Below, piece by piece: positions 4,765 through 63,931 of a stretch of DNA of 64,000 nucleotides. Under the pieces are notes generated by a model. The model did not search any database, was not told the origin of the DNA, and saw only the letters and a program-made list of their open reading frames with translations. Source of the DNA: a virus (lineage: Duplodnaviria; Caudoviricetes); IMG/VR virus record IMGVR_UViG_3300025723_000017, positions 32,001-96,000 of that record, one strand, 5' to 3'. The stretch's first letter is position 1, and the number at the start of each line of letters is the position of its first letter. A program made the translations under genes and the position numbers.

Positions 4765-5435
4765 GTTATATCTGTCAATATTGTAAAAAAAACTTTGTAA
4801 AAGAATCTAGTTTGACTGTGCATTCTTGTGAACCAAGACGCAGGCGACAGGAAAAAGATGAAATAGGAGTACGATTAGGTTTCCATGCATACTTGAAATT
4901 TTATGAATTGACACAAGGATCATCTAAATTAAAGACATATGATAATTTTTGTGAAAGCCCTTACTATAAAGCATTTGTAAAATTTGGTAGATATTGCGCA
5001 AACACTCGTGTTATTAATCCAGCTCGATTCACAGAATGGATATTAAAACAAAACAAAAAATTAGACTATTGGTGCAGTGATAAGTTATACGAAGAATATC
5101 TTTTATTTTATCTCAAAGTTGAAACAATGGAAGATGCACTGACTAGGGCCATTGAACATGCAATAACTTGGGGAGAAGAAAAGGATTCTCCGCCTAACGG
5201 ATATTTGCGCTATGGTAATCATAATGCTATTGCACAAGCTATATTAACGGGCAAAATCAGTCCGTGGGTATTATATAATTGTGAATCTGGACAAAAATTT
5301 TTAGCACAGTTAAATACTGAACATCAATCTATGATATGGCCATATATTGATCCTGATGTATGGAATAAAAAATTGAAAGAAGATCCAGCCAATCGTGCAG
5401 CAGCACAAGAATTACTTAAGAGAGCCGGCTGGTAA
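4761..5435 (+). CDS. N-terminal zinc-finger protein
   Basis: CQYC...H.C motif. Confidence 0.65.
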   Translation: MSYICQYCKKNFVKESSLTVHSCEPRRRRQEKDEIGVRLGFHAYLKFYELTQGSSKLKTYDNFCESPYYKAFVKFGRYCANTRVINPARFTEWILKQNKKLDYWCSDKLYEEYLLFYLKVETMEDALTRAIEHAITWGEEKDSPPNGYLRYGNHNAIAQAILTGKISPWVLYNCESGQKFLAQLNTEHQSMIWPYIDPDVWNKKLKEDPANRAAAQELLKRAGW

Positions 5436-6034
5436 TGAGCGCAGATGTTGATTTAGATTTAGCTGATAGAGAACAAGTTCTAAAACTTATTAGAGCAATT
5501 CCGGCGTGTCAACTTAATCAAGGACAAGTTAGAAGACATAATTCAGGCATTTATGTAACTGACATTCCTTATGATCCATTGAATCAATGTGCAGCAATAG
5601 ACTACGAAACTGCCGAAAAACGCGGATATTTTAAGATAGATTTATTGAATATGTCGGTATATCAACTTATAAAATCTCAACAACACTATGATGAGTTATT
5701 GGGTAAGGAACCTGATTGGCAACGTCTTTGGACTGATGTTCAATGGGCTAAACAAATTGTTCATATAGGTAACTATACTGATTTATTGGCAAAGATGAAG
5801 CCGGATTCCATCACACGTATGGCAGCATTTATAGCTATTATACGTCCAGGTAAAGCACATTTGCAAAATCGACCATGGAAGGAAGTTTTTGATTCAGTAT
5901 GGGATGGTGATGCTAGTCTTGGGTTTGTGTTCAAACATTCGCATTCGATTTCCTATGCGGCACTTGTTGCGCTACATATGAATCTCTTAGACGAAAAAAC
6001 AGTTACTAGTCCGGCATCCGGCGTACAAGAGTAA
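5435..6034 (+). CDS. minimal DnaE/Pol III alpha-like polymerase core
   Basis: DVDLD, RHNSG, GYFKIDLL, IIRPG, FKHSHSISYA in the order of the DnaE motifs. Confidence 0.75.
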   Translation: MSADVDLDLADREQVLKLIRAIPACQLNQGQVRRHNSGIYVTDIPYDPLNQCAAIDYETAEKRGYFKIDLLNMSVYQLIKSQQHYDELLGKEPDWQRLWTDVQWAKQIVHIGNYTDLLAKMKPDSITRMAAFIAIIRPGKAHLQNRPWKEVFDSVWDGDASLGFVFKHSHSISYAALVALHMNLLDEKTVTSPASGVQE

Positions 6035-6456: not shown

Positions 6457-7605
6457 ATGTATTCAACCACTGCTTATCTTTATCAGCAACGAACAACCGT
6501 GCTATTGCTCGACAGCAGTGGGCAATATTTCACAATGAGGTACAATCCAGTGTACGCTAAAAAACTAACTTTAAATTTAGGAGTCGATAATGTACTCTTA
6601 TTTTCCTTTGTTAACCAAGATGAAAAACCAGTTAACGTAAACGGCTGCACCTTTACATTTCGTATCACTGATACACAGGGCACAAATTTATTACTACAAG
6701 AACCAATGACCATACTTAATGCAGCTACTGGTCAAGTAAAAGTTTATGTTCCTGCTGCTGATACATTGGAATTAATTGCACAACCTGCTAGTTATTCCAT
6801 TACTGTTCAAAGTGGTAATCTAAATCAAGCAGTATTTACAAATTCTCAAGCTGGTGCCCGTGCTCCTATAGACCTCGTTAATTCAGTATTTCCACAATTT
6901 ATACCTTCAATTCCTTGCACCATACCAACTACTAGTTTAAGTTCGCAAGCACAATTAGATGGCACAGCATACCAAAACTATCCTGGGTGGGCTGGTAATT
7001 GGTATTATGGTGGTAATGGAAGTAATTTTTTCAATAATTATCAAAATACAGAATTCCATTCGAGTTTTATCCAACCTCGTAATTATGTAACTACAATTCA
7101 ATTGGATTTGATCGGATATACAGGTACTATCAAAGCACAATGGGCACAAAATTATGAGAGTATTTGGTACAATGTTACTGAATCCACTACTTATCTGAAC
7201 AAAACTGGCACCATTTATATGAACGTATTAGGGTGGTATCCGTTATTACGTTTATGTTTTAACAACAGTATATTTTCTACACCAAATCCTCCTGGGGTAC
7301 CAGCTTCGGCCTATGCGGTATGTACTGACGGTGTATTGACTGATGTAGTATTACAAAATGGCGGGTCAGGATACTTAGCTCCGCCTAAAGTTGATATTTT
7401 AGGGAACGGGTCAGGTGCGATAGTCACAGCTAACATTGGTGGAAACGGTACAGTTACTGGGTTTAACATTATCAGTGGTGGATCAGGATATTGGCCGATA
7501 CCATCAGGTGGTGTGAATCCATCTGCGTATCCGGTGCCGCCAGCTAGTCAAGGTGCATTTCCGATTATATCAACTGGCTATGCTACAAACATTCTTTACC
7601 GTTAA
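6457..7605 (+). CDS. virion structural protein (BppU-like N-terminus, GGSGY repeats)
   Basis: 'KPVNVNGCTFTF','AATGQVKV' and two 'GGSGY' tail-type repeats; late promoter upstream. Confidence 0.6.
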   Translation: MYSTTAYLYQQRTTVLLLDSSGQYFTMRYNPVYAKKLTLNLGVDNVLLFSFVNQDEKPVNVNGCTFTFRITDTQGTNLLLQEPMTILNAATGQVKVYVPAADTLELIAQPASYSITVQSGNLNQAVFTNSQAGARAPIDLVNSVFPQFIPSIPCTIPTTSLSSQAQLDGTAYQNYPGWAGNWYYGGNGSNFFNNYQNTEFHSSFIQPRNYVTTIQLDLIGYTGTIKAQWAQNYESIWYNVTESTTYLNKTGTIYMNVLGWYPLLRLCFNNSIFSTPNPPGVPASAYAVCTDGVLTDVVLQNGGSGYLAPPKVDILGNGSGAIVTANIGGNGTVTGFNIISGGSGYWPIPSGGVNPSAYPVPPASQGAFPIISTGYATNILYR

Positions 7606-17643: not shown

Positions 17644-18936
17644 ATGTCATATTTAAAAAGTTTTTTAACGAGTCCATGGACCATATTAGGTTCTATTATA
17701 TTAGGGGTACTGACGGGAATTTATACTCCTGAGTTTGCAGTAAATTTTGAACCTGTTGGCGGTATCTATATTAGCTTATTAAAAGTTGTTGTATTGCCAT
17801 TCTTATTTGCTACTATTATGGTAGGTGTAATTAATCTACTGCAAAAAGAAGGCAGTCAGACTATGATTAAGCGTATCATTTTGGGATTCCTAGCAAGTAT
17901 GTTTCTTTCCTCGCTGATAGGAGTGGGTACAGTGGTTATTACAGGAAGCGAAATGACCACTGAAAAGAAAATACAATTGGGAGCATTGGTTAATAATAAA
18001 GATCAATCTTCGGACATGAATATTACATTGCACGAACCTATGCCTGTAACTGAAAAAGTTAATCCAATGGCAGTAGCCGATAAATTTATTCCTGAAAATA
18101 TTTTTGCCACATTGGATCGCGGAGAAAGTTTAAAGATTGTTATATTTTGTTTAATATTTGGTATTGCATTAGGCAGTATCAAATCCCCAGGACAGCGTAT
18201 TATAGTGGATATATTCCAAAGTGTACAACTAGCTAGTATCAGTATTTTCAAATTCTTAAACTATGGATTACCATTTGCTCTATTGGCTATGATTAGCGCA
18301 CAAGTAGCCAAAGTAGGCGTAGGTATATTTGGCACAATGATAGAATTTATCTATCAGCAGTTTATTGGCGGCATGTTAATCGTTATTGTAGGAACACTAG
18401 TAATTTGGGTAAGAGCTGGTGGCAGTATTATGAATGTAATAAGAGAAACCAAAGAAACGTTGATTGTTGCAGTAAGCTCACGCAGTAGTTTGGCATGTAT
18501 TCCTTATGCACAAGAAGCACTGTCTAGATTACAATTTGACAAATCTGGAGTTGAACTTACGGTTCCATTAAGTTTTACTGTTAATCGAGTTGGTAGTGTA
18601 TTGTATTATGCTATTGCGACTGTTTTCATTGCCAATATATATGATACTCCAATGACAATTGGAACCTTAATGGTGGTATTATTTGGCAGTATATTAGCTG
18701 GATTAGCCAGTGCTGGTACTACTGGTATACTAACAGTGGCTACTGTGGCTGTTGTTTGCGATTTATTAAAATTGCCGAGCGAGGCAGTGCTAGTACTATT
18801 GATAGCCGTTGACCCATTGATGGATATGATTCGTACTGCAAGTCATGTACATGGTAATGTTGCAGTGACTGCATTTGTATGTGATAAGGAAAAACAAGAT
18901 GAGCGAAATCAAACAATTCCTACTCAATCTACTTGA
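17644..18936 (+). CDS. dicarboxylate/amino acid:cation symporter (DAACS/GltP family)
   Basis: Multi-TM; 'LLKVVVLP','FIPENIF','SSRSS','DPLMDMIRT'. Confidence 0.9.
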   Translation: MSYLKSFLTSPWTILGSIILGVLTGIYTPEFAVNFEPVGGIYISLLKVVVLPFLFATIMVGVINLLQKEGSQTMIKRIILGFLASMFLSSLIGVGTVVITGSEMTTEKKIQLGALVNNKDQSSDMNITLHEPMPVTEKVNPMAVADKFIPENIFATLDRGESLKIVIFCLIFGIALGSIKSPGQRIIVDIFQSVQLASISIFKFLNYGLPFALLAMISAQVAKVGVGIFGTMIEFIYQQFIGGMLIVIVGTLVIWVRAGGSIMNVIRETKETLIVAVSSRSSLACIPYAQEALSRLQFDKSGVELTVPLSFTVNRVGSVLYYAIATVFIANIYDTPMTIGTLMVVLFGSILAGLASAGTTGILTVATVAVVCDLLKLPSEAVLVLLIAVDPLMDMIRTASHVHGNVAVTAFVCDKEKQDERNQTIPTQST

Positions 18937-56528: not shown

Positions 56529-57110
56529 ATGACATCAACTATCTCAGAAGCAGACATCAGTAGCAAAGAACCTGGACAATTATTACAAGATTCGGGTATG
56601 TATGTATTCATGGATGAAGTGAATAATGAAACTATCAAACCCATTGTTGAATGGATACTCTGTGCCAATCATACGGCAAAGAAAAAACGTAAAGAATTAT
56701 TATTGATGATTTGCAGCGAAGGTGGCAGTATGGATCATGCATTTGCCCTAATTGATGTCATGCGTAGCAGCTCCATACCAATTAAAACAGTGGGCTTAGG
56801 TACAATTGCCAGTTCTGGATTGCTGATATTTTTAGCCGGTACTCGGGGTCGTAGAATATTAACTCCCAATACCAGTATATTAAGTCATCAATATTCAGCA
56901 TATACCGAAGGCAAACACCACGAATTATTTTCCATAGCCAAAGAATTTAATTTAGCCAATGAACGTATGGTGGAACATTATCGTGAAACTACAGGTTTAG
57001 ATGAAGCCACTATTAAATCGCAACTACTGCCCACTAGTGATGTTTGGCTTACAGCAGAAGAAGCATTGGCCTTGGGCATTTGCGACTACATAAGTGACCT
57101 TAAAAAATAA
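56529..57110 (+). CDS. divergent ClpP-family protease
   Basis: SEGGS, IASSG (Ser), SHQ (His), SDVWL (Asp), AEEA..LG..D. Confidence 0.88.
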   Translation: MTSTISEADISSKEPGQLLQDSGMYVFMDEVNNETIKPIVEWILCANHTAKKKRKELLLMICSEGGSMDHAFALIDVMRSSSIPIKTVGLGTIASSGLLIFLAGTRGRRILTPNTSILSHQYSAYTEGKHHELFSIAKEFNLANERMVEHYRETTGLDEATIKSQLLPTSDVWLTAEEALALGICDYISDLKK

Positions 57111-57120
57111 TAAATAACTA

Positions 57121-58545
57121 ATGCGTTATTATGAATTCCGTTATCTAATAGAAGGTTATCCACAAGCACAAGCTGCTTTTATACAAGCAGGTGCCGACAC
57201 AGCCTCTGTACAAAAAACTATAGCCGACTTCAAACAATTAGTTACACGCAATCAAATAAAAGACATTAATCAAAAGAACATAGACTGGTGGGCAAAACAA
57301 GGTTGGGATAAGTTTAGCCAATTTGTCAATCAAGCAGCAGCCGTACCCAGTAAATCTCAAATTGAAAAAAAGAAATTACCCGGACAAAGTATTAATTTAG
57401 TTGATAATGCTCAATGGTTTATAGTAATTCCACTTGATAAAGATGCCAGTTGTTTTCATGGGAAAAATTCAGATTGGTGTACTACAAAAGTACATCAAAG
57501 TTATTTTGAACAATATTTTTATAATAGACAAGTAACTCTAATATATTGCTTTAATAAATCAACCGGCGGTATGTGGGCCATAGCCGTACATAAAGACACA
57601 GATAAATTCGAAATGTTTGATCAGAAAGATAGAAGTTTAACAGTAGATGAATTTAAACGACAAACCGGGTTAGATCCTGCTCAACTACGTGATATGGCCT
57701 TAGGTGATGTACATCAACCTAAAGTACAAGCCACACGTGATAAATGGAAAGATTCCAAAGCATTGACTAATAAATTATTGAATGACTTACCAGAAAAAAC
57801 TAGATCATCTGAGATAGAAAAACAATTGCTATATAATAAATCTAGAAATGAATGCCTGAAGTATATTCGCAAGATCGGATCAATTGATTCTAATGATTTT
57901 CCATTGGCAATAGAGATAGCAGCAGTTTCACTAGATAGTCATGCAATACAACATATTAAAAATCCAAAACCTATTGTGCAAAAAACAGCAGTTTCACAAT
58001 ATGGTGGAGCAATACAATATATTATCGAAGCTGGTATTACACCCACGGAAGCAGTACAAATAGCAGCAGTTTCAAATGATGGTAGTGCAATAGTTTATAT
58101 TATCGACGCTGGTATTACGCCTAGTGAAGCGGTACAACGGGCAGCAGTTTCACAATATGGTGGAGCAATACTATATATTATCCGCGCTGGTATTACGCCT
58201 AGTGAAGCGGTACAAAAGGCAGCAGTTTCAAATGATGGTAGTGCAATAGTTTATATTATCGACGCTGGTATTACGCCTAGTGAAGCAGTGCAAATAGCAG
58301 CAGTTTCACAATATGGTGGAGCAATACTATATATTATCCGCGCTGGTATTACGCCCACGGAAGCGGTACAAAAAACAGCAGTTTCACAACTTGGTCGTGT
58401 AATACGATATATTATCGACGCTGGGATTAAACCCACGGAAGCAGTACAAATAGCAGCAGTTTCAAATGATGGGCTTGCAATAGAATTTATTATCGACGCT
58501 GGTATTACGCCCAGTAAAGCGGTAAGGCGAGCGTATTACAGCTAG
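57121..58545 (+). CDS. probable head protein with 26-aa helical repeats (DUF4116-like)
   Basis: TAAATA promoter, MRYYEF start, 'ASC..G....WCT', repeats AVS..G.AI.YII.AGITP.EAVQ. Confidence 0.7.
   Translation: MRYYEFRYLIEGYPQAQAAFIQAGADTASVQKTIADFKQLVTRNQIKDINQKNIDWWAKQGWDKFSQFVNQAAAVPSKSQIEKKKLPGQSINLVDNAQWFIVIPLDKDASCFHGKNSDWCTTKVHQSYFEQYFYNRQVTLIYCFNKSTGGMWAIAVHKDTDKFEMFDQKDRSLTVDEFKRQTGLDPAQLRDMALGDVHQPKVQATRDKWKDSKALTNKLLNDLPEKTRSSEIEKQLLYNKSRNECLKYIRKIGSIDSNDFPLAIEIAAVSLDSHAIQHIKNPKPIVQKTAVSQYGGAIQYIIEAGITPTEAVQIAAVSNDGSAIVYIIDAGITPSEAVQRAAVSQYGGAILYIIRAGITPSEAVQKAAVSNDGSAIVYIIDAGITPSEAVQIAAVSQYGGAILYIIRAGITPTEAVQKTAVSQLGRVIRYIIDAGIKPTEAVQIAAVSNDGLAIEFIIDAGITPSKAVRRAYYS
57986..58530 (+). 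repeat. seven 78-bp coding tandem repeats
   Basis: CAGCAGTTTCA...GGTATTACGCC recurs every 78 bp. Confidence 0.9.
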
Positions 58546-58647
58546 TGAAGCAGTAATCCAAGCAGCTGGCAAAAGATAACCATACCGTTTGACAATATAA
58601 TGTAGCCGTGTTACTATAACTTAACATTAACATTATAAGGAAGTTGA

Positions 58648-59244
58648 ATGCCCAGTTTAATCCCCATGGTAGTAGAGCAAACCTCAAAAGGCGAAAGATC
58701 CTACGATATCTATAGTCGGCTATTACGAGACCGTATTGTTATGCTGGATACAGATGTCAATGAAACTAGTGCAAGTCTAGTAGTGGCACAGATGTTATTT
58801 CTCGAAGCCGAAGATCCCGCTGCAGACATCCTATTTTATATTAATTCACCAGGTGGGTCAGTTACAGCGGGCATGGCTATTTACGATACCATGCAGTTTA
58901 TTCAGTGTGACGTTTCAACTATTGTCATGGGACAGGCCTGTAGTATGGGTAGTCTACTGGCACAAGCAGGCACCGCTGGCAAACGTTTAATCCTTCCCCG
59001 CGCTAGACATATGATTCATCAACCATCAGGTGGTGCACGTGGACAAGCTACGGACATGCTGATTCAAGTTAATGAAATTCTCAAGATGAAACGGGAGTTA
59101 ACTGGAATCTACGTGACGCATAATTCTGCAAACAAGACATACAGTGAACTGGAACAGGATATGGAACGGGACAACTTTATGTCAGCCGAAGAAGCTGTGG
59201 CATATGGTCTAGCTGACAAAATTGTTGCCAAACGAGGACAGTAA
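58648..59244 (+). CDS. clpP: ClpP protease
   Basis: [33 protein letters not shown]. Confidence 0.96.
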
Positions 59245-60023: not shown

Positions 60024-60166
60024 CTAAATTACTGTATCTAGATGATACTGTAAGTATGATTCTATACAGTGTGGAGATAGAAAAATTTGTGGCCAAAATT
60101 TTTTGATCAGCTGATTTAAATCCTGATGAAGTTTTTGACCCCTGGGGTCCTACATAGTGGAAGAAG

Positions 60167-60221
60167 ATTGATTTATACGATCCAGGATTGACAAAATTGA
60201 TTTATACGATCCAGGATTGAC
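60167..60221 (+). repeat. 26-bp direct repeat x2
   Basis: ATTGATTTATACGATCCAGGATTGAC at 60167 and 60196. Confidence 0.9.
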
Positions 60222-60296
60222 GCAAAGCTAGTATACATACAATGTATTGTAGCTAAAAAACAACACCGGGGTGTCCGAAGTTTTTGAAATAGCTAA

Positions 60297-60325
60297 ATTA
60301 TAGCATGTAATTTTATAAAATGCAA
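60297..60325 (-). promoter_or_regulatory. sigma70 promoter (GA-free)
   Basis: TTGCAT-17-TATAAT with extended -10 TG. Confidence 0.7.
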
Positions 60326-60355
60326 GCGCATAAAATGCAAGCGCATAAAATGCAC

Positions 60356-60400
60356 GCTGTAACGCATTAGTACAGCGTAGTGTACATAATGCGTTACAGC
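60356..60400 (-). terminator. long hairpin/terminator after the 61028 gene
   Basis: GCTGTAACGCATTA/TAATGCGTTACAGC 14-bp arms plus inner GTACA/TGTAC. Confidence 0.65.
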
Positions 60401-60413
60401 GTGCTTGCTACGC

Positions 60414-61028
60414 TTACAGCGTGCTTGCTACGCTTACAGTTTGCTTGTTAGCTGTAATGCTAACTAAGTTAGCTAGTGCAATAGTGCGCACTTTTACAGT
60501 ATGTAACACGTTGTTAGCTACGTTGTGCGTTACAGCACTTTGCGCTAGCAGTTTGTTGCGTGCGCTAGCAGTTAAGTATTGTGCTACTTGTAGCTTAGTT
60601 GCTAATTGGCCGTTAATAAAATACATACTGCTAGCGTTGTTAAATATAGCGTATAAGTACAGCGCATTAGTTTGCTTGTGCTTAACTATGCTATGTACGT
60701 TAGTGTGTGTAAAATAGTTACTTTGCGTTGTAAAGTTAGCTACGTTGCTAGCGTTGTTAGCTTCAATATTATTTGCACTTTTTTGTACAGCGTTAGCGTA
60801 AACGTTAGTAAATGCGCTAATGTTGCTAAAAAGTTGCACGTTAGCACTAACTACTTTTTTAATGCTAACTAAGTTGTGTTTTGCGCTAGTAGCTACTTGC
60901 GTAACGTAGCATACGTTAGCAAACGTAGTGCTTTTGTTAGCAAGTAATACTTGTATAGTTTGTGCGCTAATTGTGTTAGCGTTAGCGTGTGCTGTAAGTG
61001 CTTGTTGTGCTTGCTGTAAATTTAACAT
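60414..61028 (-). CDS. early protein nearly lacking D/E/G/P/W
   Basis: 204-aa ORF downstream of three tandem promoters; leader AAGCGTAAACAAAAATG shared with the 61645 gene. Confidence 0.8.
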   Translation of the reverse strand: MLNLQQAQQALTAHANANTISAQTIQVLLANKSTTFANVCYVTQVATSAKHNLVSIKKVVSANVQLFSNISAFTNVYANAVQKSANNIEANNASNVANFTTQSNYFTHTNVHSIVKHKQTNALYLYAIFNNASSMYFINGQLATKLQVAQYLTASARNKLLAQSAVTHNVANNVLHTVKVRTIALANLVSITANKQTVSVASTL

Positions 61029-61075
61029 TTTTGTTTACGCTTATAAAATGTGTTTAAGTTGTTTACTGCAACTAA

Positions 61076-61282
61076 ATTATACTGCTAACTGCGCTAATTT
61101 GCAAGTGCTACTTTGTTGCAAAAAAACAACGCTTGCTAACTGCTGTACTGCTTACTATGCAGTAATTATACTGCTAACTGCGCTAATTTGCAAGTGCTAC
61201 TTTGTTGCAAAAAAACAACGCTTGCTAACTGCTGTACTGCTTACTATGCAGTAATTATACTACTTGCGTAGCTAATACGCAA
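61076..61282 (-). promoter_or_regulatory. three sigma70 promoters at 89-bp period
   Basis: TTGCAA/TTGCGT-17-TATAAT at 61076-61104, 61165-61193, 61254-61282; two identical 89-bp units. Confidence 0.85.
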
Positions 61283-61297
61283 GTAGTATTTTGTAAG

Positions 61298-61645
61298 TTA
61301 TGCGCTAGCAAATAAGCGCAACAATACGCTATTGTTGTCCGTTGTTACAATTTGCGCATTGTAACGCTTTGCAATAATTAGCAAGTTAGTGCATACTTGC
61401 GCTTTAGCTACTTTAACTGCTATAAACTTAGCACGCAAGTTAGTATAAACACGCTTAGTAAAATATTGTGCTTGTACTGCTTGCGCTAGTGCTTGCGCTT
61501 GTGCGTGTTGTTCGTTTGTGTACAAGTGCGCATTTTTTGCATTTTGCGCTTGCACTTGTAACACGCTTATATAACGTGCGTGCTTTACAGCGTTGTTTTT
61601 TGTTGTTAAAACAACGTGCGCTACTGCTTGAGGCTTTTTTTGCAT
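61298..61645 (-). CDS. early basic protein nearly lacking D/E/G/P/W
   Basis: 115-aa ORF downstream of two promoters, same leader as the 61028 gene. Confidence 0.75.
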   Translation of the reverse strand: MQKKPQAVAHVVLTTKNNAVKHARYISVLQVQAQNAKNAHLYTNEQHAQAQALAQAVQAQYFTKRVYTNLRAKFIAVKVAKAQVCTNLLIIAKRYNAQIVTTDNNSVLLRLFASA

Positions 61646-61697
61646 TTTGTTTACGCTTTATAAAATGTTGTTAAGCTACTTGTTTACTGCAAGCTAA

Positions 61698-61817
61698 ATT
61701 ATACTGCTAACTGTGCTAATTTGCAAGTGCTATTTTGTTGCACGTTTACAACACTTGCTAACTGCTGTACTGCTGTACTGCAAGCTAAATTATACTGCGC
61801 ATTGTTTTAATTTGCAA
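61698..61817 (-). promoter_or_regulatory. two sigma70 promoters
   Basis: TTGCAA-17-TATAAT at 61698-61726 and 61789-61817. Confidence 0.85.
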
Positions 61818-61854
61818 GTGCTATTTTGTTGCAAAAAAACAACGTAATTAACGC

Positions 61855-61971
61855 TTGCAATTTAGCGCAAACGACTTTACAATGTAGTTGTTGTTAGCAG
61901 TTAGCAGTTAGCAAGTGTTGTTTTTTTGCAACAAAGTAGTGCTTGCAAGTTAGCGCAAAATGCGTTACAAT
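61855..61971 (+). promoter_or_regulatory. two divergent sigma70 promoters
   Basis: TTGCAA-17-TACAAT at 61855-61883 and 61943-61971. Confidence 0.85.
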
Positions 61972-62002
61972 GTAGTTGTTGTTAACAAAAAGGAGCTGTA
62001 CT

Positions 62003-62233
62003 ATGTTAAATAGCACAAACGTTCGTCGCCTAGGCGAGATGGCGGCAGAATTTGGCCTTGATTCTTTTTTCAGCACAATGCGAGTGTTGCATAATTGCGA
62101 CAACAAAGACCAGCTTAATACGCAGGACGAAGCTGTACTGTATAACATAGCAGAGGAAGCTGTGCAATACGTTGTGCAGTATCAAATGTCAGCACTAAAA
62201 GAAGCTTTAGCAGAACTTAACGCTAAAGTGTAA
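62003..62233 (+). CDS. small early protein, paralog of 62322
   Basis: AGGAG SD; V.RL...A.E.GLD.F...M..L...D.K..L shared. Confidence 0.75.
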   Translation: MLNSTNVRRLGEMAAEFGLDSFFSTMRVLHNCDNKDQLNTQDEAVLYNIAEEAVQYVVQYQMSALKEALAELNAKV

Positions 62234-62244
62234 CAAAAAAGCAC

Positions 62245-62273
62245 TTGCGTTTTAATAGCGCAAGTGCTACAAT
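62245..62273 (+). promoter_or_regulatory. sigma70 promoter (GA-free)
   Basis: TTGCGT-17-TACAAT. Confidence 0.75.
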
Positions 62274-62321
62274 GTAGTTGTTGTGCAGTAAGTAGTTTAA
62301 CTTTTAACAAAAGGATCTACT

Positions 62322-62555
62322 ATGAGCGTAAAACGCCTAGCTGTTTTTGCCCGTGAACGCGGCCTGGATGACTTCTGTGACGTCATGCTGACACTGGACC
62401 AAATGGATCAGAAGGGAGACCTGATGCCAGGAGACCCCATCTTTGATCTGCTCGAGGATGTTAACGAAGAGTTAACACGCTTTATGAGCCTGTACCGAAC
62501 CCGCATGCTCAAACCCGAATACGTGCAGACCTATCCCGAGACTGCACTGGCTTAA
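62322..62555 (+). CDS. small early protein
   Basis: AAGGA SD; terminator follows. Confidence 0.75.
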   Translation: MSVKRLAVFARERGLDDFCDVMLTLDQMDQKGDLMPGDPIFDLLEDVNEELTRFMSLYRTRMLKPEYVQTYPETALA

Positions 62556-62560
62556 ACCAA

Positions 62561-62580
62561 GGGGCTCGGGCCCCGTTTTT
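62561..62580 (+). terminator. intrinsic terminator
   Basis: GGGGC-TCGG-GCCCC + T run; near copy at 62848-62869. Confidence 0.75.
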
Positions 62581-62584
62581 AGGT

Positions 62585-63246
62585 TGAAATCTGCAGGCCA
62601 AATTCTGCAGACCAAATTCTAGGATCAAATTTCTCAGGAGAACTACATGGCTTCAGTAGAAGGCAAGACCGTCAAGGTGGGTGACTACGTTTGTTTTAAA
62701 TCAGACTTTGAGCAAACGGGCAAAATTGTCAAAATTAACGGCAATAACTTGACCCTGTTCAGGGATGACGAGGGGTTTGGCGGCGACTACATTGGCGGCG
62801 AGAACTACACAACGGTACACGCCGCCGACTGTTGGATCGATTAGTCCAGGGGCTCAGGCCCCATTTTTTGTTTATTTTCTTGGCCTCAAAATCTAGGATG
62901 AAATTCTCAGAGTCAAATTCCCAGGGTCAAATTCTTGACCCTCATCTCCATTATCAAATCTGCTAGACCAATCTCTCGTCAGCCTCTGACTCCACAGGCG
63001 AAATTCCCAGGGTCAAATCGTCATGGCGAAGGTCATACACAAGGCCAAATCTTTAACGCTACACGACAGAATCCTAACCTTGACATCACCTCTAGCCGTT
63101 GATGTTGGTCTACGAAGTCTAGTTCTGTCTACGACAGGGTCAAATCGTCTCGCCAATATTAAATCCCTGAAGGGATTTTGTAGAATTGACCTTTGCTGTC
63201 AAAGGTCTCGGCTAATGTCTAAGCCTCTGTTTCGCAGGGTCAAATC
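62585..63246 (+). repeat. dispersed degenerate AGGNYCAAATY repeats
   Basis: Runs at ~13-15-bp period at 62585-62638 and 62884-62941; further CAGGGTCAAAT copies at 63008, 63135, 63235. Confidence 0.65.
62647..62844 (+). CDS. small SH3/KOW-like protein
   Basis: AGGAG SD; 'VKVGDYV.F....GKIVKI'. Confidence 0.7.
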   Translation: MASVEGKTVKVGDYVCFKSDFEQTGKIVKINGNNLTLFRDDEGFGGDYIGGENYTTVHAADCWID

Positions 63247-63453
63247 TTAGACTGAAGTCTGCTGCCTAAGTCTCAGGATAAAGGCTTCGTGTAGCTCGTC
63301 AACTTCTTCCTGCCAAAGATACAGGTCAGTTCTGGGATCGTAGTATTGACCTTCACGTACATCATAGTAAAGAACACGCCCTGTGGCAAAGGCATAGGGA
63401 CCTTCTAATCCCGGGCGAGGTTTGTAAGGCCAAGTTGCAGATTTCTGTCGCAT
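63247..63453 (-). CDS. hypothetical protein
   Basis: 'GLEGP.....GRVLYYD..EG.YYDP.TD' phage-type motif; start uncertain. Confidence 0.7.
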   Translation of the reverse strand: MRQKSATWPYKPRPGLEGPYAFATGRVLYYDVREGQYYDPRTDLYLWQEEVDELHEAFILRLRQQTSV

Positions 63454-63655
63454 AATAAAGTCTCGATATTGAAATTTCAAACGTGTCGTCTAAGACGAAA
63501 AGTCTAAGATTGAAGTCTAAGATTGAAGTCTATTTGGGAAAACATCGCCCTAGGATCGAGGCCACAAGCATAACACCTAGAACTGCCAGTGCAGGATAAG
63601 TTAGATAAAATATCAAGTTTAACACGTTTGTCTCCCCTGCCTGTAGGCTGAGCTG

Positions 63656-63931
63656 TTAACTGTTGATGGTGCGGAAGGGACTGTAAATGTCTTCAACCAA
63701 TCGTTGCTGTGCAGTGGGACTCCACTGGCTGAAATCCTTAACTGACCCAGCCTCAAGATATATTCCTGTCTCCTGCTGCTGTGTATAGTCAGGGTCTTCG
63801 TATACTACTTCGAATGATGTCATTGCGTCAATCCTGGTTAAAATATTATTATACTGTCTGGGCTCCTGTCTGTCAAGCCCAGGTGATTTCGGTACCCTGG
63901 ATGGTGTGATCCAGTCCCTGCTCGATGACAT
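63656..63931 (-). CDS. hypothetical protein
   Basis: ORF ending YSPFRTINS; start uncertain. Confidence 0.5.
   Translation of the reverse strand: MSSSRDWITPSRVPKSPGLDRQEPRQYNNILTRIDAMTSFEVVYEDPDYTQQQETGIYLEAGSVKDFSQWSPTAQQRLVEDIYSPFRTINS

Follow-up and report, generated by a model that had tools for sequence, protein, structure and literature searches.

Early genes and promoters free of GR and YC dinucleotide steps in a large myophage

Introduction

Early takeover regions with clustered sigma70 promoters are familiar from phages T7 (promoters A1-A3 with gene 0.3/Ocr), T5 (the pre-early, first-step-transfer region) and T4 (the early promoters). We describe a locus in the IMG/VR virus record IMGVR_UViG_3300025723_000017 (Caudoviricetes) that resembles these regions in its near-consensus host-type promoters, its small genes of unknown or anti-defence function and its provision of one promoter per gene. 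It differs from them in that promoters and genes have been written almost without the dinucleotides GA, GG, TC and CC, and no reduced dinucleotide alphabet has been reported for T7, T5 or T4. A GR step (GA or GG) on one strand is a YC step (TC or CC) on the other; we refer to these four dinucleotides as forbidden steps and to DNA that lacks them as clean. Our window is the 64,000-nt stretch that covers bases 32001-96000 of the 154,059-bp record, and positions refer to the window unless they are marked as genome positions.

Avoidance of a target motif is known for recognition sites in phage genomes and from ACA-less genes, which escape MazF. Messages without the motif are immune to sequence-specific endoribonucleases. 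The motifs in known cases are 3-8 nt long and are removed by synonymous change. As in those cases, every target motif is removed from what must survive, but here four dinucleotides are gone from whole transcription units, and the price is five amino acids in the proteins, a consensus -35 and the Shine-Dalgarno sequence. To our knowledge, the only documented system that reads essentially this step on both strands of phage DNA is a DpdA of the CAjan type, and we know of no evidence that the resulting bases hinder host RNA polymerase (RNAP). The DpdA of Escherichia phage CAjan introduces a 7-deazaguanine (dPreQ0) at GA and GGC (PMC7544227), a precedent for an enzyme that reads GR on DNA; under such a system GR-free DNA would be free of modification. 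The likeness is incomplete, because all GG steps are avoided here and not GGC alone.

Rho is a universal bacterial factor that reads exactly YC in nascent RNA, each primary binding site holding one YC dinucleotide (PMC5314796), and Rho-driven sense-strand composition, or purine bias of coding strands, has been documented (PMC13323073). Known cases of Rho avoidance are a statistical bias, whereas our locus has zero tolerance and extends the rule to GR in mRNA, to promoters and to untranscribed DNA. A full-text literature search on phage early genes and dinucleotide avoidance returned no description of GR/YC-free early genes.

A GR/YC-free island

The island spans 1.72 kb and contains 11 forbidden steps where ~307 were expected from the mean density of the genome (0.179). 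It is the sole such stretch in the 154-kb record, which additionally holds one clean promoter stretch of 210 nt at genome positions 99428-99637. From left to right, the island comprises a border hairpin, one open reading frame (ORF1) behind three tandem leftward promoters, a second (ORF2) behind two, and two divergent rightward promoters (Table 1). The rightward promoter region reaches as far as the Shine-Dalgarno sequence (AAGGAG) of a gene with ordinary composition. Beyond that gene, a clean module of 100 nt, similar in size to an RNAP footprint, lies between two ordinary genes.

The G+C content of the island is normal (0.37), and GC, CG and GT steps are enriched rather than AA and TT, GC by 2.4-fold. 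Erosion by C-to-T or G-to-A change is therefore excluded. Diverged copies of the promoter module never gained forbidden steps. Two further preferences in the island are not demanded by the rule: its genes favour NAC over NAT codons (in ORF1, AAC 24:4, CAC 5:2 and TAC 5:2) where the genome does the reverse (Asn 428:1411), and the AT step is halved.

The constraint acts on nucleic acid

We back-translated both proteins with the codon usage of the phage to obtain expected numbers of forbidden steps. ORF1 has 3 against 49.4 +/- 5.8 expected, and ORF2 has 5 against 29.7 +/- 4.6. Every serine codon in the two genes is AGY, and TTC, ATC, GTC, ACC, GCC and CTC are absent. The non-coding DNA of the island is equally affected, with 3 forbidden steps in 754 nt compared with 16.6% in other intergenic DNA.

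We pooled 9 kb of clean genes from this locus and seven related loci. The GA steps fall 98 times on codon positions 1-2, 3 times on positions 2-3 and once on a codon junction, so that the residue is nearly confined to Asp and Glu codons. In the same order, TC occurs 6, 2 and 4 times and CC 9, 9 and 4 times. A G|G junction precedes only 1 of the 669 codons that start with GC or GT, but 15 of the 95 GA codons. The rule is thus strand-symmetric wherever it is free of cost; where residues are at stake, Asp and Glu are kept most and Pro least. In the leaders, GGAG is replaced by (U)AAG plus a pyrimidine, 8-13 nt upstream of the AUG, and this appears to be the longest Shine-Dalgarno complement that the rule permits.

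Because codon choice, codon junctions, leaders and non-coding DNA all follow the rule, selection acts on the nucleic acid. The rule covers promoters (from about -60 or further upstream), leaders, synonymous sites, codon junctions and terminators, and its price in the proteins is paid in D, E, G, P and W. A cause at the level of codons or tRNA was ruled out, since codon junctions and non-coding DNA follow the rule too. Avoidance of dipyrimidines damaged by ultraviolet light (UV) was likewise rejected: TT/AA is undepleted, and a unit that obeys the rule on one strand retains template-strand YC. General avoidance of restriction sites was dismissed on the grounds that the palindromes AGCT, GCGC, CTAG, TGCA and GTAC are present in the island.

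Promoters of the island

The original prediction had singled out this region for nine sigma70 promoters, six leftward and three rightward, with a GA-free -35. All nine were found, with spacing of exactly 17 bp. They follow the pattern TTGC(A/G)(A/T)-N17-TA(T/C)AAT, the -35 variants being TTGCAA, TTGCAT and TTGCGT, and the hexamers match the sigma70 consensus at 4-5 (-35) or 5-6 (-10) of 6 positions. Seven of the nine were also recovered by another scan. TTGACA is indeed the usual -35 elsewhere, as had been noted: the N17 sites of the window include 9 TTGACA and 9 TTGCAA, and ~50 early promoters with TTGAC(A/T) lie just past the window.

The nine promoters are not independent of each other. One 89-nt module accounts for four of them, including two tandem copies that are 100% identical, and the rightward modules match the leftward ones as inverted copies at 75-93% complementarity. 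The promoter density (~4.5 per kb) is only about twice that of the adjoining early region. With ~50 ordinary early promoters in the same genome, the nine are not an exceptional battery for this phage. The proposal that the altered -35 reflects selection rather than mutational erosion is supported, by the G+C content of 0.37, the enrichment of GC, CG and GT, the avoidance at synonymous sites and junctions, and the clean diverged copies. The description as a whole was too narrow, however, as the GA-free -35 is one symptom of a wider dinucleotide rule.

Table 1. Features of the island and its borders (window positions)
Feature	Position	Strand	Remarks
GC hairpin ACACC-CC-GGTGT + T run on the minus strand	60255..60273	-	read from the sequence, absent from the scan's list; probable terminator for the leftward units, left border
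GR/YC-free island	60276..61992	.	exceptions: 60609 GGCC, 60763 TC, 61338 TCC, 61512 TC, 61631 GAGG, 61873 GA
Promoter TTGCAT-17-TATAAT	60297..60325	-	-35 starts at 60325; ~30 nt before the terminator hairpin
ORF1 (P0001, 204 aa)	60414..61028	-	conserved alpha/beta protein; 0 D, 1 E, 1 G, 0 P, 0 W; leader has UAAGCGUA, without GGAG
Two identical 89-nt tandem promoter modules	61075..61252	-	TTGCAA-17-TATAAT at 61104-61076 and 61193-61165; serve ORF1
Promoter TTGCGT-17-TATAAT	61254..61282	-	within a perfect hairpin-forming palindrome; third promoter of ORF1
ORF2 (P0002, 115 aa)	61298..61645	-	second GR/YC-free gene; leader type as ORF1; homologue in the island of related locus L020
Promoter TTGCAA-17-TATAAT	61698..61726	-	ORF2 proximal promoter
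Promoter TTGCAA-17-TATAAT	61789..61817	-	ORF2 distal promoter
Promoter TTGCAA-17-TACAAT	61855..61883	+	divergent; first rightward promoter
Promoter TTGCAA-17-TACAAT	61943..61971	+	second rightward promoter; AAGGAG Shine-Dalgarno of gene 62003 lies 32 nt downstream
76-aa acidic protein gene	62003..62233	+	ordinary composition, ordinary Shine-Dalgarno
GR/YC-free promoter module, 100 nt	62214..62313	+	TTGCGT-17-TACAAT at 62245-62273; sits between two ordinary genes
Gene of 77-aa paralogue of the 62003-62233 product	62322..62555	+	33% identity; ordinary composition

ORF1 and ORF2 as protein genes

ORF1 has homologues of ~200 aa in >300 clusters, at 57-99% identity and on contigs of up to 343 kb, and the family alignment has 30-38 invariant columns. 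Its AlphaFold model is a confident alpha/beta fold (predicted local distance difference test, pLDDT, 88.6; predicted template modelling score, pTM, 0.82). The number of homologue clusters and the pLDDT establish ORF1 as a real protein gene. In a set of 122 proteins (120 listed homologues, ORF1 and ORF2), D makes up 0.9% of the residues, E 0.6%, G 0.3%, P 0.2% and W 0%. Homologues of ORF1 with normal composition exist, for instance at L033:5995-6609 and L021:5989-6600 among the related loci.

No Pfam or PHROG family matched ORF1, ORF2 or their neighbours. Foldseek found nothing in the PDB and only uncharacterised phage proteins in BFVD, and the ESM Atlas yielded nothing usable. The best match of P0001 to a solved structure was the Rho inhibitor YaeO/Rof (6jie_A; Z 6.7, root-mean-square deviation 2.3 over 69 residues), which is below the noise guide of Z 8. 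The WYL domains of PafBC, BrxR, CapW and DriD and Hfq followed at Z 5-6, all under the same guide. These sub-threshold matches suggest that P0001 may be a nucleic-acid- or Rho-binding Sm-like barrel.

A one-strand unit and the ordinary early units

Past the end of the window, on the minus strand at genome positions 99099-99608 (L011:5099-5608), we found a unit that obeys half of the rule. Its sense strand has 0 TC/CC over 510 nt, whereas the synonymous sites of that strand hold the expected number of GR steps (12 versus 11.1 +/- 2.5). The gene within it (genome 99174-99500) lies behind a GGAG Shine-Dalgarno sequence, and its product is an acidic protein of 108 aa with 18 Asp and no Pro, a candidate DNA mimic or anti-restriction protein. 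A clean TTGCAA-17-TATAAT promoter behind a TTGACT one is predicted to drive the unit, and the YC-free tract begins at the predicted transcription start of the upstream promoter.

The three special genes have sense-strand YC densities of 0.002, 0.006 and 0.000, and each of the other 262 of 265 ORFs has at least 0.03. The class is discrete and all-or-none, as only 3 of the 265 ORFs obey. A continuum of YC depletion among the early genes, as a general Rho pressure would produce, was looked for and not found. The promoter module, the unit at 99099-99608 and ORF1/ORF2 define three grades within one genome: clean promoter only, clean sense strand (that is, a GR-free template) and both strands clean.

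The ordinary early region holds ~50 near-identical promoter units of the form TTGAC(A/T)-N17-TATAAT, one per small gene, from window positions 63848-63876 through the adjoining segments L011 and L012 (genome 95.8-120 kb). They share the spacer motif TCAAT and the leader AGCAGTACAGTAAACAAACAGGAGC. Together with the -35, the spacer TCAAT forms an imperfect palindrome, possibly an operator.

Related phages

We found islands of 0.6 to ~8 kb at related IMG/VR loci. The analysis drew on five records, G000 (this record), G001 (326 kb), G002 (362 kb, complete), G003 and G004, four of which are fragments; scans of whole records showed one island each in G000, G001, G003 and G004. The island of G001 is relaxed: CC has returned to the sense strand, with GA and TC still near zero. 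In the family tree of ORF1 the basal branches have normal composition, most of the large crown clade is clean, and the branches that bear relaxed forms are longer. The tree, which may be distorted by composition, forces at least 11 state changes (gain or loss). Orthologues at 50-70% identity remain clean.

The ~8-kb island of locus L026 is organised into one cassette per gene: a TTGCAT-17-TATAAT promoter and a conserved leader stand before a clean ORF, and a clean A6-hairpin-T7 terminator closes the unit. The ~60-110 nt upstream of the -35 are clean though untranscribed. GGGG/CCCC elements, which contain GR, reappear solely from the terminator to about -100 of the next promoter. These intervals, between the terminator of a cassette and the following promoter, carry a spacer repeat GCGCGGG...GCGCGCCCC...CCCCGC...GGGGCAC (L026 positions 5060-5300, 5650-5880, 6530-6720 and 7110-7340), the only GR-containing DNA in that island.

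Possible causes of the dinucleotide rule

We see the promoters as belonging to privileged early transcription units kept free of the duplex step 5'-GR-3'/5'-YC-3', and we rank a mark on the DNA first among the causes, tentatively and at somewhat below an even chance. Our commitment is limited to the general mechanism of site-free privileged early units. A factor active at the start of infection would read the two-base step and disable a transcription unit by a single hit, and the units of the island would have been written to present no site to it. In the preferred form, the factor would leave a covalent mark or lesion on the DNA, on the G of GR or the opposing C of YC. The mark would stop host sigma70 RNAP from binding a promoter, where both strands count, and from reading a template strand. 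It could be made by the phage, as a partial modification of its own DNA, or by the host, as the act of a defence enzyme. The proteins made from the clean genes (the P0001 family with its putative Sm/WYL-like barrel, P0002 and the acidic 108-aa protein) would be the first counter-measures. Such a mark would yield the graded series, with promoters clean on both strands, 99174-99500 clean on the template only and ORF1/ORF2 clean on both.

Several results weigh against this explanation. TGT/DpdA (PF01702) had no match in G000-G004, four of these five records being fragments, while all control genomes were positive. C5 and N4/N6 methylases were not found in the same records, including the 326-kb one, though enzymes of unknown types are possible. 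No modification genes turned up in the Pfam census of the window. The preQ0 genes FolE, QueD, QueE and QueC were not among the families listed by the Pfam census of 101 larger ORFs (25 of 29 families in one part), a census and not a dedicated search. CAjan, which is modified at GA and GGC, has no GR-free genes or islands. The ~50 ordinary early units carry TTGACA, GR-containing spacers, GGAG and normal GR content, so a mark cannot block RNAP at most sites: it must be sparse, or those units must act later. A template-blocking mark also leaves unexplained why the non-template strand of ORF1/ORF2 is clean at the expense of Asp, Glu and Gly. The original prediction had itself invoked a modification of the G of GA. 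That model is possible, but gained no support from the missing DpdA/TGT and methylases, the retention of TTGACA by most early promoters or the lack of islands in CAjan. Of the other candidates tried, a GT4 glycosyltransferase at genome 134129-135193 is generic and has no shown link to DNA. A RegB-like GGAG nuclease (PF10715) gave no match, and its control was silent as well. A GGC specificity of the CAjan type was not seen: GA is avoided completely at free sites, the avoidance of GG does not depend on the base that follows, and the leftover G|G steps stand before GA codons.

Evasion of Rho accounts for part of the pattern only, and we hold it unlikely as the cause of the whole. A transcript without UC and CC cannot load Rho and would be read to its end without an antiterminator, and ORF1 might be an anti-Rho factor. 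This fits the near absence of sense-strand YC from all three special genes, the broad spread of the phenomenon (Rho being universal), the resemblance of P0001 to YaeO/Rof and the unit at 99099-99608, which obeys the YC rule alone and from a transcription start onwards. A constraint confined to the transcribed strand or region is, however, seen in that unit and not in ORF1/ORF2, the promoter modules or the upstream DNA. Rho is blind to GR, yet at synonymous sites the mRNA strand excludes GA with the same strictness as TC, and the Shine-Dalgarno sequence has been sacrificed together with Asp, Glu and Gly. The promoter module flanked by YC-containing genes is clean on both strands, and the ~60-110 nt of untranscribed DNA upstream of the -35 in L026 are clean too. 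Since Rho needs several YC, a few should be tolerated, but the class is all-or-none, and in G001 sense-strand CC is relaxed and TC is not. P0001 lacks the acidic residues with which Rof mimics RNA, and its structural match stays below Z 8. Single-hit, all-or-none avoidance would be accounted for by a YC-specific enzyme of host or phage (a cytosine deaminase, ADP-ribosyltransferase, nickase or RNase) that acts on nucleic acid opened or made by transcription, whether the displaced strand, the template and/or the mRNA; the genes for its inhibitors would be site-free and the rest would be rescued once the inhibitor is made. Such an enzyme would make sense-strand YC the strictest rule, with Pro least retained, would cover both strands in the most heavily transcribed units, and would allow for the tolerated ordinary early genes and for lability across hosts. 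It requires no phage modification genes, in line with their non-detection. We nevertheless think it quite unlikely, because unmelted DNA upstream of the -35 is clean too and damage to the other early genes would be inherited. We know of no bacterial anti-phage enzyme with YC/GR dinucleotide specificity. DarT1 was rejected as a G-directed host enzyme, as it shows no consensus motif (PMC11543638).

The original prediction had read the promoter density as an immediate-early trap for host RNAP that might help to pull the DNA in, its -35 elements escaping a modification of virion DNA at GA. The promoters stand in tandem and divergently and are close to consensus, their GA-free -35 is real and GR-specific modification exists in other phages. 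They serve, however, two conserved and two small paralogous genes with leaders, each leftward unit ends in a probable terminator, and ~50 equally good promoters adjoin at about half the density. Islands lie inside contigs of 326 kb and 90 kb, the present record is a fragment without defined ends, and the modification genes were not found, all of which leaves the trap unsupported and very improbable. We see just as little chance for proofing against guanine oxidation, in which GR-free templates would lack hole traps and the GGGG/CCCC of untranscribed spacers would possibly act as sinks. In DNA charge transport no base is oxidised more easily than the 5' G of GG and GA. The rule matches the GG/GA set, and no enzyme gene is needed; G-run elements lie just outside the L026 cassettes and at the left border of our island, and the phage carries UvdE and is aquatic. 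But TT/AA, the main UV target, is undepleted, 8-oxoguanine blocks RNAP weakly, GA is avoided as strictly as GG though it is a much shallower trap, and lability between close relatives is hard to fit. That the island has no function, being low-complexity DNA grown from GR-free repeats or the mutational footprint of deaminase erosion, is refuted for practical purposes by the conservation of ORF1, the back-translation and the pooled codon positions. The island is repeat-rich, but its G+C is unchanged with GC steps 2.4-fold enriched, ORF1 occurs in >300 clusters with a confident fold, and diverged copies and orthologues at 50-70% identity stay clean.

With regard to site-free early units in general, the chances seem evenly balanced that many aquatic phages, including this clade, face an unrecognised factor that reads GR/YC on DNA or nascent RNA and needs one hit to kill a transcription unit, perhaps a new host defence or a new phage DNA mark, and have answered it with lipogram first genes. 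If so, these first genes would be complete promoter-to-terminator units with functional proteins in a 15-letter amino-acid alphabet, and the three grades, from promoter only through one strand to both strands, would map the working of the factor. Target-site avoidance is known, but not on a scale that overrides the -35, the Shine-Dalgarno sequence, terminator design and five amino acids. The genes under the rule are conserved across hundreds of phage lineages, which points to a strong, unnamed selective agent at the start of infection, and the GR/YC-free signature offers a handle for finding it. The signature would also flag the most privileged early proteins of a phage, candidate anti-defence or takeover factors without a known family. 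The genes and their signals are also natural cases of proteins that fold without Asp, Glu, Gly, Pro and Trp, of initiation signals that dispense with a Shine-Dalgarno sequence, and of strong promoters and terminators that use 12 of the 16 dinucleotides.

Genomic setting and minor observations

The record stems from an uncultured phage and is a fragment, with a CheckV completeness of 45%. It encodes a long tail sheath, closest to those of Agrobacterium phage Atu_ph07, Sinorhizobium phage Phosso and Pseudomonas phage PA5oct (40-43% identity), together with ribonucleotide reductase, helicases, a primase, ClpX, two ClpP, UvdE, a ligase and a peptide deformylase. This gene set identifies a large myophage of the jumbo T4-like assemblage. 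Large plus-strand genes extend to 92 kb of the genome; the feature follows at 92.3-94.0 kb, and behind it lie ~40 kb in which every small gene has a promoter of its own. Neither the island nor 20 kb of the window showed similarity to a known phage at the DNA level. A DAACS-type symporter at 17644-18936 is 69% identical to a gene on the 105-kb contig CAIQHG010000029.1, from a lake Burkholderiales metagenome-assembled genome; the match may be a weak hint of habitat or host, or the contig may be a mis-binned phage.

Elsewhere in the window, a 474-aa protein of unknown function lies between the two ClpP paralogues (56529-59244), and HSP20 and an ATP-dependent ligase are encoded besides ClpX and UvdE. 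Two 29-bp direct repeats (AAGATTGATTTATACGATCCAGGATTGAC) stand at 60164-60221, immediately outside the left border of the island. To the right, the intergenic DNA at 62560-63530 has many short direct repeats of the form (G/A)GNCAAAT(C/T) (ggtcaaatc, ggccaaatt, gatcaaatt, gtcaaattc), and GGGGCTC(G/A)GGCCCC bidirectional terminators are interspersed among them at 62561-62574 and 62849-62862.

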